From the IMG/VR virus record IMGVR_UViG_3300050010_000596: a stretch of DNA of 64,000 nucleotides. The stretch is one strand, 5' to 3'. Every line of letters begins with the position of its first letter. Positions within the stretch are counted from its first letter, which is position 1. The notes beneath the pieces are model-generated. The model was not told the DNA's origin. It saw only the letters and a list, made by a program, of their open reading frames with translations, and ran no database searches. This document shows positions 3,197-49,201 of this stretch, piece after piece. The position numbers and the translations under genes were made by a program. The stretch is from an uncultured virus (IMG/VR IMGVR_UViG_3300050010_000596). Lineage: Duplodnaviria > Heunggongvirae > Uroviricota > Caudoviricetes.

Positions 3197-3643
3197 TCAG
3201 TCTCCTATCGTCTCGGTAATCGACAACGGCAGCTGTTCACCGCAGCGTACCTCGGCGCCCAGCTGGAGCACATCGAGCTTGTTCAGGGACTCGATCATCA
3301 CCAGCACCTCATGGTAGATGGCGGTCCAGGCTTCAATGGCCATGGATTGGCCTGGCAGAATGATGTCCAGGTGATCCTTGCGGAAGAACTGCGGGAACTG
3401 GGTGGGGTCCGGTTCGTTGGCTGGGTAGATCGTCAGATCAAAGCAGGAACACACACAGACGAAGGTGTCCTGCTGTTCGCCGGTCTTCGGGTCCACCAAT
3501 TCTCGCTGGTGGAGAAAGATCTCGGCGACCATGTCTACCGGTTGGCTGGCGTCGATCCGCAGGCGGAATCCTTCGCCGCGATTAGGGACGAACAGCCGCT
3601 GCTGGGGCTGTCGTACGAGCGTGACGCCGCGTTGGCTGGCCAT
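3197..3643 (-). CDS. Hypothetical protein
   Basis: 148-aa ORF, AAGGAGG SD. Confidence 0.75.
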   Translation of the reverse strand: MASQRGVTLVRQPQQRLFVPNRGEGFRLRIDASQPVDMVAEIFLHQRELVDPKTGEQQDTFVCVCSCFDLTIYPANEPDPTQFPQFFRKDHLDIILPGQSMAIEAWTAIYHEVLVMIESLNKLDVLQLGAEVRCGEQLPLSITETIGD

Positions 3644-44207: not shown

Positions 44208-44248
44208 AAAAAAACGGGCAGCGGAAAGCCCGAAGCCCTCCGCTGCCC
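44208..44248 (-). terminator. Intrinsic terminator of the Ro60 island
   Basis: gggcagcgga/tccgctgccc 10-bp stem followed by a U7 tract on the minus strand. Confidence 0.75.
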
Positions 44249-44395: not shown

Positions 44396-45903
44396 TGTAC
44401 AGGTTGCGCATCCGCTTCCTCCTCATCACGGACTTCCGCCCCTTCCAGCGCGGCAATGAACTTCAAGAAGGCCTCAGACCAGCCCGAGATCTCCGCATCC
44501 CACTTCCCGGCGTAATTCACGCCATGGCTGTGGGCCGAGACGTCGATGATGTAATTCCGCTTGCCGGGAGGAACCGGCGTGCGGCGGTTCGGCAGGTCGC
44601 AGTCCTGCGAGTCGGTAAAGAAGATCGTCCGGTCGGGCTGTTCCGCCTCGTGTTCGCGGATGTAATCGCACACCTGGCGGGTGAAGATCCCGCCGCCACC
44701 CAGCACGCGGGTCTGCTTGTCGATCTCATTGGCCAAGGCAAAGCCCCGGACGGGCGTCAGCTTGGCTGTCTTGTGCACCCGCGTAGTGTCGTTCCCGGCC
44801 GTGGCGTAAACCGAAATGTGCTCGCACATCTCGGTCGCCAGGATGCACATGCTGGCGGCCGCTGCGATCCGGTTGTGCTCCGTGCGGCCGGACAGCGCTT
44901 CGTTCATCGATCCGCTGACGTCTACGACGAACACACTCCAGCCCTCGAACTTGGGCAGGCCCGCGCACATCCGAAACATCAGCTGCTCAATCTCTCGCGA
45001 CCAGTCAGGAGCCGCGTCCTTTGCCCGGATGAAGTCGATGGGCAGGAGCCAATCCACGCGACAGGTCTCGAAGGCCTGGGCCATGATCTTCCGGGAGACT
45101 TTCGCCTGCGTCATATTCCGCAGGTTCTTCAACAAGGCAAAGCTCGGCATCTTGCCGGTGGTGATCAGTCCCTCCCACACTGCCTTCTTGTCCTCGTCGG
45201 ACTTGGCGGCGCTCATGCCGACTTCCCAGGTGTTGGCCGTCTTCAGCTGGTCATTGATCAGCCGCGACAGTAACGCCTCGGGATGCCGCATGACTTTGGC
45301 CACACCCGCCCGGTACTTTCGCTCGATCTCCTGCCCTTGCTGACCCTGCACGTCACGGGGCTTGGGATGGGAGAGGAACACGACATCCCGGAGTTTAATC
45401 TCCTTGTCGGTCTTGTTCCATTTGTCCAACTGGTATTCGTCGAACTTGCCCATGGCCGCAGCCAGGCCTTTCTTGACCTGGGCGCTGAGGGTCTTCTTGC
45501 CGTCGTTGGTGGCCCAATAGATCGAGAGGAACTCGCTGGCCTCGTCCGGCCGCCGAATGATCTCCGGCAGCAGGCCCGCGACCAGATGTTTATGTGAGGC
45601 GTGGCGGGCCATCTCGCGGGCCAGCAACAGCGGCACGTGCCGCAGCTTTTGCTGGAAGCGGGCTTCCTTGGCAATGGCGGCCACGGCCTCGGCGGGCACC
45701 AGGGGCACCGTGGCCTGGATCATCCCTGCCACCTGTTCACCATCGCAGTAGGCCAAATCTTCCCAGAGGAGGTTGGCCATCACCAGCCGCCGCAGCTTCA
45801 TCTCGTCCGATTGCTTGGCAGCGTGAGGGCCGAAGCCCCCGGCCAAGCGCGTGGTGGTATCCAACACATGGGAACGCTTCGTCTTCGGATTCTTAGTGGC
45901 CAT
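44392..45903 (-). CDS. rsr: Ro60/TROVE-domain RNA-binding protein with C-terminal vWA domain
   Basis: LLWEDLAY, KLRHVP, RRPDE, KFDEYQLDKW, KLRDVVFLSHPKP, NTWEV, ALLKNLRN (TROVE); VVDVSGSM and FFTDSQ (vWA/MIDAS); AAGGAG SD. Confidence 0.92.
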   Translation of the reverse strand: MATKNPKTKRSHVLDTTTRLAGGFGPHAAKQSDEMKLRRLVMANLLWEDLAYCDGEQVAGMIQATVPLVPAEAVAAIAKEARFQQKLRHVPLLLAREMARHASHKHLVAGLLPEIIRRPDEASEFLSIYWATNDGKKTLSAQVKKGLAAAMGKFDEYQLDKWNKTDKEIKLRDVVFLSHPKPRDVQGQQGQEIERKYRAGVAKVMRHPEALLSRLINDQLKTANTWEVGMSAAKSDEDKKAVWEGLITTGKMPSFALLKNLRNMTQAKVSRKIMAQAFETCRVDWLLPIDFIRAKDAAPDWSREIEQLMFRMCAGLPKFEGWSVFVVDVSGSMNEALSGRTEHNRIAAAASMCILATEMCEHISVYATAGNDTTRVHKTAKLTPVRGFALANEIDKQTRVLGGGGIFTRQVCDYIREHEAEQPDRTIFFTDSQDCDLPNRRTPVPPGKRNYIIDVSAHSHGVNYAGKWDAEISGWSEAFLKFIAALEGAEVRDEEEADAQPVQ

Positions 45904-45951
45904 TCGCCACTCCTTTGTAAAGAGGGAAAGGTGCCAATAGGGAAAAAAAGA

Positions 45952-46088
45952 CCTCCGGGAATGTACGGGAAGACTTCGTGGAGACCGCCGTCCTTCCAAT
46001 TAGACGAACGGACCTTGCGGCCCGTAGAGGAGTCGAACCCCTATTTGCGGTTTGAGTTACGAAGTATGTCTTCTCTACGCCACGGAGG
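45952..46088 (-). ncRNA. Y RNA-like (YrlA-type) RNA 1 with permuted tRNA-like domain
   Basis: Terminal stem CCUCCG/CGGAGG; UGGCG, UACUUCG and AUUCC motifs; T-arm AGGGGUUCGACUCCUCU, GCAA-capped acceptor-like stem, D-arm CGUCUAAUUGGAAGGACG; adjacent to Ro60. Confidence 0.85.
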
Positions 46089-46092
46089 ATAG

Positions 46093-46460
46093 TGGAGGCG
46101 GCGGGAATCGAACCCGCGTCCTAATCAGTTTCAATGTCGCGTCTACGTGTGTTTTCGCCTTTTGGTTCTCATCTCACAAGACCCGGACGACGCGGTTCTT
46201 ATGGGACCAGCTCGCTGTTCGCATATCCTCGCCCCGTGAGCACGGGCTCTGGATGGTCTGAACTTTGTGTCTGGCTTTTGGACCCCCTCAGACGTAGGTT
46301 CCGCAGTCAGGTCGCGGCGAGTTAGGCCGCGACGGCGAAGGCCGAGGCCTTCAGGTTGCTGTTGGCAACTAAAGTGTGGTCCGCTTTTAACGTGGCCTGC
46401 TGACCAACCACGACACGCAGCAAACATCTCTGCTCGACCAGTCGAAACCAATTCGCCCCC
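46093..46460 (-). ncRNA. ssrA: tmRNA; tag (A)ANSNLKASAFAVAA at 46366..46322
   Basis: 5' GGGGGCGAAUUGGUUUCGAC; 3' GGACGCGGGUUCGAUUCCCGCCGCCUCCA; G3.U alanine pair; resume codon GCC after UUAGUU; CCA not encoded. Confidence 0.96.
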
Positions 46461-46462
46461 AA

Positions 46463-46552
46463 GCCTGCACCGACGATTGTTCGTTCGAGCCCGCAGGTCC
46501 AGGCCTGCTAGCGTGTAGAAAAGGAGAAAGCCACGCAGCTCGCGGTGCACGC
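46463..46552 (-). ncRNA. Unassigned ~90-nt structured RNA
   Basis: Closing stem UGCACCG/CGGUGCA enclosing two hairpins (GCGUG/CACGC and GCAGG/CCUGC). Confidence 0.45.
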
Positions 46553-46590
46553 ATCGCTACAACAGACCAGAACCAACACACGAATAAAGG

Positions 46591-46679
46591 AACCGAGGGA
46601 ACCGCTCGAAAGCCGTAACTGCCCCGAGGGGCAATCGAATCATCGTATCGAAGTAACGGCTCTCTATCGCCACTCGGTT
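46591..46679 (-). ncRNA. Y RNA-like RNA 2 (short form)
   Basis: Terminal stem AACCGAG/CUCGGUU; UGGCG, UACUUCG and UUCC motifs; inner stem AGCCGU/ACGGCU. Confidence 0.75.
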
Positions 46680-46686
46680 GTAAGGG

Positions 46687-46770
46687 ACCGGAGGAATCTG
46701 CGAGACCAGGAAGTGCCCTTGCGGGCGCTCGATTAAAAGACGAAGTACCTTGTCTCTTTCGCCATCCGGT
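46687..46770 (-). ncRNA. Y RNA-like RNA 3 (short form)
   Basis: Terminal stem ACCGGA/UCCGGU; UGGCG, UACUUCG and AUUCC motifs; GCCC-GCAA-GGGC hairpin. Confidence 0.75.
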
Positions 46771-46778
46771 TGTATGGG

Positions 46779-46896
46779 ACTCGGGGAATGTACGGCAGGG
46801 GAAATGCCTGACCAACTAGGCTGTCCCGCCACGCCTTTCGGCGAACAGGAATTGGACTCGAACCAACGAAGTAACCCCTGACTAACGCCACCGAGT
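46779..46896 (-). ncRNA. Y RNA-like (YrlA-type) RNA 4 with tRNA-like domain
   Basis: Terminal stem ACUCGG/CCGAGU; same motifs; T-arm UUGGUUCGAGUCCAA, GAAA-capped stem, D-arm GCCUAGUUGGUCAGGC. Confidence 0.82.
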
Positions 46897-46900
46897 TGTT

Positions 46901-47431
46901 TCAATTATCTGTTTCACGGAGAAGACGCCACAACAAGAACCTTCGCTCGCGGGCCGTCTTCACTGCGTGACAATTATGACATCGTACGTCGCATTTGGCA
47001 ATCTCCGCAAGTACCGATTTCATGCTACGGCTTCTGCCTGCGCACGAAATGTTGAACCGCTTGGTTCCGCGAACATGGTCGAAGCTCAATTTCAGCGGGT
47101 CAGGTTCTCCACAATCTACGCACGGGTGTTCCAGCAAGTACACCAGGATGAACTCCGCAAATGCTCGTCCAGCCTTCAGCGTTCGTTGCTTCCGCCGTAA
47201 CAAGCATAGCTCGTGGTTCTTCCAGTACCAATTCCGCTGGAGCCTCCGTTGCAGTTGTTTGTACTCGGTCCGCCCGTTCCGCTTCCGATTGTGTTTCACC
47301 TGGGCCAACCGGTACTTTTCCCGATTGGCCTCTCGCCATCGTGTGTTGCGGTCGTTGTGACACTTGACGCAGCACGTTCCCTGGCTATTGAACTTCTTTC
47401 TACGCTTCTTGCAAACCGAGCACCGTTTCAT
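46901..47431 (-). CDS. HNH endonuclease
   Basis: CSVC...CVKC N-terminal Zn finger; CVDCGE...LSFDHVRG...KCDVRCHNCH; AAGGAGG SD. Confidence 0.85.
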   Translation of the reverse strand: MKRCSVCKKRRKKFNSQGTCCVKCHNDRNTRWREANREKYRLAQVKHNRKRNGRTEYKQLQRRLQRNWYWKNHELCLLRRKQRTLKAGRAFAEFILVYLLEHPCVDCGEPDPLKLSFDHVRGTKRFNISCAGRSRSMKSVLAEIAKCDVRCHNCHAVKTARERRFLLWRLLRETDN

Positions 47432-48622: not shown

Positions 48623-49201
48623 GTGAGCAAACAACAATATCCTAGCGAGTACGCCGCGTGGACAAACGCAAAGCAACGATGCAGCAACCCGCGAAATCGT
48701 GCCTGGTGCAATTATGGCGGTCGCGGCATTAAAGTGTGCCGCCGATGGCGAGGCCCTTACGACTTCGCGAATTTCCTCAAAGACATGGGCCCGAAGCCAC
48801 GGCCAGAGCTAACACTAGAGCGGAAGAACAACGACAAGGGGTACACACCCAGCAACTGCGTCTGGGCCACGCGGACTACACAGATGCAGAACCGGCGTAA
48901 CAGTAGCCCCAAGCTCACTTTTCAAGGACAGACACTGACCTACCAAGCGTGGGCCAAGCAAATCGGCGTACCTTGGGAGACTATTCGATGGCGGCATCGG
49001 CAAGGATACCCTATCGCCCGTGTCTTATGTCGAGATCACGGCAACGCAACAGGCCGGACAGGGATTCAGGTTACATATCGCGGGAAGACTTGTTCGCTAA
49101 CGCACTGGGCGCAGGAGCTAGGCTTCAAGTACATGTGCCTTCTAATGCGATACTACCGAGGAGATCGTCCTCCCCAATTGTTCCGGGCGCTAAGGACTTA
49201 A
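48623..49201 (+). CDS. HNH-type homing endonuclease with repeated C-terminal DNA-binding motifs
   Basis: KQRCSNP...YGGRGIKVCRRW...FLKDMGPKP...TLERKNNDKGYTPSNCVWAT. Confidence 0.88.
   Translation: MSKQQYPSEYAAWTNAKQRCSNPRNRAWCNYGGRGIKVCRRWRGPYDFANFLKDMGPKPRPELTLERKNNDKGYTPSNCVWATRTTQMQNRRNSSPKLTFQGQTLTYQAWAKQIGVPWETIRWRHRQGYPIARVLCRDHGNATGRTGIQVTYRGKTCSLTHWAQELGFKYMCLLMRYYRGDRPPQLFRALRT

Follow-up and report, generated by a model that had tools for sequence, protein, structure and literature searches.

A Ro60-linked array of four Y RNAs with an embedded tmRNA in an uncultured tailed phage, and probable display of tRNA anticodon loops by related RNAs

The stretch of DNA analysed here, 64,000 nucleotides of an uncultured virus and called the window throughout, raises the question of what four structured RNAs are doing next to a phage gene for a Ro60-like protein, and which parts of a tRNA they present. 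Judged by its sequence, the window belongs to the genome of a large tailed phage; genes for a major head protein, a baseplate wedge and a tail fibre were recognised among its ORFs, and the contig that encodes its Ro60 protein has 148,159 bases. When viral contigs were scanned with a single protein, no match was returned. The run of virion genes is interrupted by a cassette of Y RNAs, tmRNA and Ro60 (Table 1), and two HNH endonuclease genes are placed upstream of the array (46901-47431, minus strand, and 48623-49201, plus strand). The promoter candidate is located about 75 nt upstream of Y4, within an HNH gene, and is weak because three such sites occur in the region against 1.4 in shuffles. 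A fifth RNA was considered in the leader and in the 131-nt linker and was unsupported in both (folding z-scores -1.46 and -0.09, respectively).

Table 1. Features of the Y RNA, tmRNA and Ro60 cassette, in the direction of the array.
Feature	Position	Strand	Description
Sigma-70-like promoter candidate	46973-47001	minus	TTGCCA, 17 nt, TG-extended CATAAT; 10/12 matches
Y4	46896-46779	minus	handle and permuted tRNA elbow
Spacer Y4-Y3	46771-46778	minus	reads CCCAUACA
Y3	46770-46687	minus	short unit with Lys(UUU)-type anticodon loop
Spacer Y3-Y2	46679-46686	minus	reads CCCUUACA
Y2	46678-46592	minus	short unit, non-canonical loop
131-nt linker	46461-46591	minus	without significant structure; no Rfam match of note
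One-piece tmRNA, intact	46460-46090	minus	Rfam match, tag, G3.U70
Y1	46088-45952	minus	handle and complete permuted tRNA body, then U run
Ro60 gene (TROVE and vWA), 503 aa	45903-44392	minus	Pfam, Foldseek
Intrinsic-terminator-like hairpin	44216-44248	minus	downstream of Ro60 gene; 15 pairs and U run

The protein gene of the cassette codes for Ro60, as its predicted structure indicates. Its product matches Pfam TROVE (E 7e-12) and shows a TROVE domain followed by a vWA domain, with a ring fold. The best Foldseek match of the structure model (mean pLDDT 78.6) is the Ro60 of phage phiLo (E 7e-16), and all 12 matches listed with E of 0.001 or less are Ro60 structures. The window and phiLo proteins share 19-23% identity; on this low-identity alignment three of the four phiLo residues that contact RNA (R137, K141, K142 and R178) have basic equivalents in the window protein, namely K144 (kept in 40/40 homologues), K145 and K181, and the position of R137 is taken by Ser140. 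The gene starts 48 nt after the end of Y1, on the same strand. A hairpin with GGCGAAUG (45895-45912, minus strand) spans its start codon; autoregulation of Ro60 through this hairpin was rejected, as one loose pattern match was obtained among 33 relatives.

The sequence-only reading of this stretch had described a 5' strand with UGGCG...UACUUCG and a 3' strand with UUCC common to all four RNAs, and both are present in each unit. They belong to a handle made of a terminal stem, a bulged UGGCG/UUCC element, an inner stem and UACUU. The pattern TGGCG-N8-22-TACTTCG is matched four times in the window, once per unit, against 0.05 expected, and none of 100 shuffles of the window reached four matches. 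Terminal and inner stems that differ in sequence and still pair had also been proposed, and are borne out by folding as well as by covariation across relatives; the folding z-scores of the four units are -3.2, -1.9, -3.9 and -2.8, with the ends paired in each.

What is carried on the handle agrees in part with the earlier description. The permuted order of T arm, closed acceptor stem and D arm was confirmed in Y1 and Y4. Y4 has a 7-bp acceptor stem and the Levitt pair G15:C48, and is the sole unit of the window without an anticodon arm, which is the classical form. The lack of such an arm had been claimed for Y1 as well; Y1, however, contains an anticodon stem of 5 bp (ACCGC at 46051-46047 pairing with GCGGU at 45988-45984) that is opened in the loop, with remnants of the anticodon loop retained on both sides of the break. 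The GNRA-capped acceptor stem holds for Y1, whose 7-bp stem ends in GCAA, whereas in Y4 the GAAA caps an extension beyond the 7-bp stem. Y1 also has the Levitt pair A15:U48 and may preserve a trace of how Y RNAs arose from tRNA. No isotype could be assigned to it: on re-ordering, the best joins, Glu(CUC) and Trp(CCA), tie at 116.4 in a test that is permissive because 96/162 joins were called as tRNA, and the nearest body is tRNA-Glu by the narrow difference of 25 to 23 points.

The description of Y2 and Y3 as carrying a short hairpin only has to be given up, since each has two hairpins on the handle. The first hairpin of Y3 has the loop CUUUUAA (46739-46733), identical to that of eight ARAGORN tRNA-Lys calls in related loci and closed by a U.U mismatch followed by G-C and C-G pairs; its second hairpin is GC-rich with a tetraloop, and its handle contains an exact GNCGAANG motif. 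In Y2 the first hairpin has a non-canonical loop that matches no real anticodon loop and looks decayed, and the second is again GC-rich with a tetraloop.

The spacers between Y4 and Y3 and between Y3 and Y2 are nearly identical, as had been noticed. A common processing site, which had been deduced from them, finds no shared sequence signal: the CCC(A/U)UACA spacer is not conserved, with none of 72 short spacers in relatives within one mismatch of it, and the 3' flanks are merely U/A-rich. The near-identical spacers of the window therefore look like a local duplication. By analogy, cutting is likely to take place in the single-stranded spacers.

The same stretch holds a complete tmRNA which the sequence-only reading omitted. 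It is matched over its full length by Rfam RF00023 with 159 bits (gathering score 47), its tag ANSNLKASAFAVAA is in a frame ending in AA and its acceptor stem has G3.U70, so that it agrees with RF00023 in all three features tested. It differs in its location, between Y2 and Y1 within a Y RNA array, and in an encoded 3' end that reads ACUA rather than ACCA, the CCA being incompletely encoded. Trimming of this 3' end could release Y1, because Y1 begins 1 nt away. ARAGORN reports tmRNAs in 15/187 Ro60 loci, 14 of them on the Ro60 strand, and Rfam confirmed 11 of the 12 calls tested; several of these loci nearly duplicate one another, and the majority are clusters of tRNA genes. The closest relatives show no tmRNA within the Y RNA array and no match to the window tmRNA was found among cultured phages. 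The link between tmRNA and Ro60 is thus recurrent but loose. Brevundimonas phage Kikimora has a permuted tmRNA 2 kb downstream of Ro60 (L189:5832-6177) that is absent from its annotation.

Small shares of the region are present in three RNA runs. In run X1 a contig of 361 nt (depth 30.6) matches 46567-46904 without difference and spans Y4, Y3 and Y2, bridging both spacers. This is a hint that fits a precursor, from contigs that carry no strand, ends or level and in a run where DNA may be present. A 300-nt contig of run X2 matches 278 nt of the tmRNA without difference; high depth at 46366-46479 comes from tmRNAs of other organisms. Y1 is uncovered by the contigs listed for X1-X4, and the Ro60 and HNH flanks have no depth in X1, missing cover that in either case proves nothing.

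Modular Y RNAs, with one stem for Ro60 and variable effector domains, were the main claim of the earlier reading. This claim is supported, and it is the published model (PMC4201824; 10.1101/312249). YrlA has been reported in 254 bacteria and 22 phages, the three characterised species have at least two Y RNAs each, one tRNA-like and one hairpin-like, and long and short Y RNAs are processed out of one precursor (PMC4201824). Y RNAs have been described as modular, with YrlA lacking an anticodon loop and many having long variable loops, a dimeric tRNA origin has been proposed for them, and the same structure paper calls the function of both YrlA and phage Ro60 unknown (10.1101/312249). The modular long and short Y RNAs being already published, the headline of the earlier reading is established biology.

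That Y1 to Y4 are the Y RNA partners of this Ro60 can be regarded as highly probable. As is expected of YrlA, they lie less than 4 kb from Ro60 on the same strand, and their 5' and 3' ends pair in a long terminal stem that has a G-N-C-G motif; moreover Y1 and Y4, and these two only, share its T arm, closed acceptor stem, D arm and Levitt pair. The published motif GNCGAAN0-1G is exact in one of the four units (Y3), whereas Y1, Y2 and Y4 deviate after GGCG. The putative YrlA published for phage CcrColossus (108824-108959, PMC4201824 supplement), which corresponds to a match of our covariance model R1 described below (L003:2979-3114), departs from the motif as Y1 does and displays the anticodon loop CUGUUAA. 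The Rfam YrlA family (RF02553) was rejected as an identifier of these RNAs since scores fall far below gathering: Y4 obtains 21.1 bits against 69 and there is no proper match on Y1, the best of the matches in eight phage loci is 50 with none reaching 69, and the CcrColossus RNA is absent from the matches at E 0.01. Salmonella YrlA has no anticodon loop and its upstream hairpin is called a variable arm; this absence holds for Y4 and fails for Y1, which has the full stem and split loop remnants. Because of this stem and of the whole loops in relatives, Y1 is better described as a YrlA variant than as a canonical member. The window RNAs probably work like YrlA and YrlB with Ro60 while standing outside RF02553 by score. 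The short units may correspond to YrlB/Yrn2, a short hairpin-shaped partner from the precursor of the tRNA-like RNA, for which the account in PMC4201824 mentions no anticodon loop, whereas Y2 and Y3 carry two hairpins on the handle. The handle of the short units is present in both, and the contig that spans Y4, Y3 and Y2 shows no ends.

The family was followed through 184 loci around Ro60 relatives and three from named phages. A search of the loci with the handle pattern gave 75 distinct units, 74 of them on the Ro60 strand. The model R1 was built from 33 short units and run against the window and 183 loci, four duplicate loci having been left out; it gave 296 matches, of which four are the window units and 292 are in the Ro60 loci, all of these (292/292) on the Ro60 strand. 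In the 64-kb window R1 finds just the four Y units, with 41.9 bits for Y4 and 35 bits for Y1, and with 42.9 bits for Y3 and 39.2 bits for Y2, which belong to its own training set. When the 35 weakest matches were left unaligned the remaining 261 fell in 111 loci with one to seven distinct units each. Proteins with DUF7873 are found near Ro60 in 3/71 loci (L026, L082 and L083) and with DUF6745 in 2/71.

In an alignment of 28 long units, 95.4% of cells are paired over 40 pairs, against 38-48% in slid controls, and 35 pairs change on both sides. The Levitt pair itself covaries, being CG in 15 and UA in 10 of 26. Of the helices, the terminal stem alone served as a selection criterion for this set; since the sequences are kin, these figures are counts and not probabilities. 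Pairing of the inner stem is 95% in the long-unit alignment, whereas a model-fitted alignment that mixes lengths gives 48.5%. In crAss001 (L001:5193-5336) and a relative (L053:5043-5169) this handle occurs in tRNA order downstream of Ro60; by eye this layout is a circular permutation of that in the window, and Rfam scores the two RNAs as long tRNAs.

What these relatives add to known biology is an anticodon stem-loop displayed on the handle. Across them the hairpin that opens after UACUU is very probably, in many cases, that of a tRNA anticodon arm. As reference 70 anticodon heptamers were taken from 197 ARAGORN tRNA calls, nine calls that overlap units having been dropped; one or more of the calls retained were false, among them the His ATG of L085, which gives one discovery match. 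A match meant an exact real heptamer closed by two pairs. Exact loops were found in 11/55 discovery clusters and in 27/152 held-out clusters, the latter against 1.0 (maximum 4) in a segment shuffle and 2.3 (maximum 8) in a loop shuffle; R1 was trained on the discovery units and some composition bias may enter the held-out set. In the held-out short units, where every other part of tRNA is missing, exact loops number 18/105 against 0.7 and 1.8 in the two shuffles. The position is specific as well, for with one mismatch allowed at 31:39 the short units have 30/137 matches at this place, 2/137 when shifted by 12 nt and 0/90 when shifted by 20 nt.

In tRNA numbering the consensus of the anticodon loop has U33 and a purine at position 37, which fits 181/206 ARAGORN calls in the Ro60 loci. 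A sequence-blind rule places a hairpin in 147/201 clusters and none in 54. Among these hairpins 60/147 have loops of 7 nt, other lengths having 12-17 each, and the 7-nt loops show U33 in 45/60, a purine at 37 in 49/60 and A38 in 41/60. Nevertheless an exact real loop is found in just about 18-20% of clusters and most loops are degenerate. The 44 matching loops are led by Asn GUU (8), Lys UUU (6), Ser UGA (5), Pro (4) and Gln (4), unlike the real tRNAs of the phages themselves, which are led by Arg UCU and Met. Differing anticodons within one array (12/12 loci with two matches) were set aside, since chance alone gives this about three times in ten. Three loci (L022, L108 and L111, at 3278-3411) have bodies that are almost identical yet bear a loop of either Leu(UAG) or Gln(UUG) type, and in one unit (L098:1998-2132) the displayed anticodon reads UUA, which is complementary to a stop codon.

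Re-ordering of long units gave best joins that in most cases keep three bases past the D arm and resume at about the end of ACUU. In many long relatives the handle is thus grafted at about tRNA positions 28/29, so that the hairpin published as a variable arm is the lower anticodon arm. Because the units begin with an anticodon arm, they attract false tRNA calls from ARAGORN (L008, L018, L072, L073, L081 and others), and loop display accounts for such calls beside phage Ro60 genes. In the literature searched we found no description of anticodon-loop display by Ro60-linked Y RNAs, a point that figures or reviews may already note.

Decoys had been offered as one possible use of these RNAs, and that suggestion gains support from the display of anticodon loops across the family, the function itself being what we infer. 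We tentatively prefer, as quite possible, that they are displays of tRNA parts stabilised by Ro60 which may serve as decoys for defences that cut or modify tRNAs. The cassette would then protect translation of the phage. As in the family, the array would be co-transcribed, its precursor cut in the single-stranded spacers and each Y unit bound and stabilised by Ro60; the resulting particles would be uncharged, stable tRNA look-alikes that absorb the tRNA-cutting or -modifying defence enzymes of the host, and the tmRNA would free stalled ribosomes. The part on display is an elbow in Y4, a whole tRNA body with its anticodon loop opened in Y1, a Lys(UUU) loop in Y3 and a decayed loop in Y2. Decoys are favoured because the RNAs are unchargeable as encoded, the loops are canonical and the commonest loops differ from those of the phages' own tRNAs. 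By plain counts, the displayed isotypes overlap known nuclease targets. AriB cuts Lys, Thr and Asn tRNAs at U36AAUC (PMC12409363; PMC11455837), a site which Y3 keeps, and the target of PrrC is the Lys(UUU) tRNA (PMC10264068). Real phage tRNAs have been proposed to avoid cleavable loops (PMC10264068). Nuclease-resistant phage tRNAs are likewise an RNA counter to tRNA-cutting defences for the same isotypes (PMC10264068; PMC11455837; PMC12409363), but those still function as tRNAs and have changes in loops or stems, whereas the RNAs of the present family have a canonical loop and acceptor ends that are sealed or missing, which fits a bait rather than a replacement. A Ro60-like gene of phage Bas63 counters the Ppl defence; Ppl, however, is proposed to act on DNA and not on tRNA, which speaks against decoys (PMC11482910). 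AriB moreover requires contacts outside the anticodon arm (PMC12409363), so that bare loops may be poor decoys. Also against decoys, a clean anticodon loop is found in the window just in Y3, and there with a U.U closing mismatch, four in five clusters are without an exact loop, and a tmRNA is missing from the arrays of the closest relatives.

Finally, the sole phage Ro60-Y RNA system reported as tested in vitro points to PNPase and not to decoys (PMC12135203). In phage phiLo the Y-like RNAs Yrl1 and Yrl2 are also upstream of Ro60 and bound through a stem-bulge-stem; they differ from the window array in being two, with a function assigned to PNPase, and the main text of that paper is without the word anticodon (PMC12135203). 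The Y RNAs of the window might similarly act as a tether or sponge of RYPER type that links Ro60 to the host PNPase or to another protein binding the elbow, by which RNA decay would be redirected or dampened and the exact loop sequence would matter little. Ternary complexes of phiLo Ro60, Yrl1/2 and host PNPase attenuate PNPase in vitro (PMC12135203), Yrn1 and YrlA associate with PNPase (PMC4201824), and the basic equivalents at three of the four RNA-contact residues point the same way. We nevertheless hold such a tether to be somewhat unlikely, as it leaves unexplained why short units that have lost all other tRNA parts keep canonical 7-nt anticodon loops in one set position (the 18/105 against 1.8 given above) and as the two Ro60 proteins have so low an identity; a PNPase tether would in any case be compatible with decoys.

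The degenerate state of most loops, together with the decayed aspect of Y2 and the remnants on either side of the break in Y1, would also be expected if Y RNAs were rebuilt repeatedly from neighbouring tRNA genes, so that the loops are recent leftovers and selection acts on the handle and some stable hairpin only. Ro60 loci are rich in tRNA genes and the dimeric tRNA origin (10.1101/312249) agrees with this, yet the isotypes on display do not track how common the real tRNAs are in those loci, short units hold the loop in register after UACUU, and U33, the purine at 37 and A38 persist while positions 34-36 vary; we therefore think such a relic origin of the loops unlikely. Very doubtful is a repair platform, in which Ro60, together with mimics of nicked tRNA (Y1 would be one), recruits or controls an RNA ligase for the mending of cut tRNAs. 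Jumbo phages (PMC7824862) and Rsr-Yrl-RtcB operons (10.1101/312249) have both been suggested to work in this way, and RNA ligases (PF09414) occur in 4/71 loci and Thg1 in 1/71, but no RtcB was found in 142 neighbouring ORFs (142/234 same-strand ORFs, 3.5-kb flanks) and scans of 11 and of 27 ORFs of the window detected no ligase.

Returning to decoys, a wider version is possible and is put forward with more reserve: that phages with Ro60 possess a programmable library of tRNA decoys, with a constant handle and interchangeable loops, elbows or opened bodies matched to the tRNAs that nucleases cut. If true, such phages would have a counter-defence made of RNA, the loops of an array keeping a record of the defences encountered, and what is called the variable arm in many YrlA RNAs would be re-read as an anticodon arm. 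The displayed loop makes protection against a tRNA-cutting defence directly and cheaply testable, and CcrColossus is a cultured phage with eight such units by R1, the row shown in the published supplement giving one. These eight units stand in a row (L003:2243-3438); one of them is annotated as tRNA-Gln and another consists of a Cys-type anticodon arm and a T arm only.
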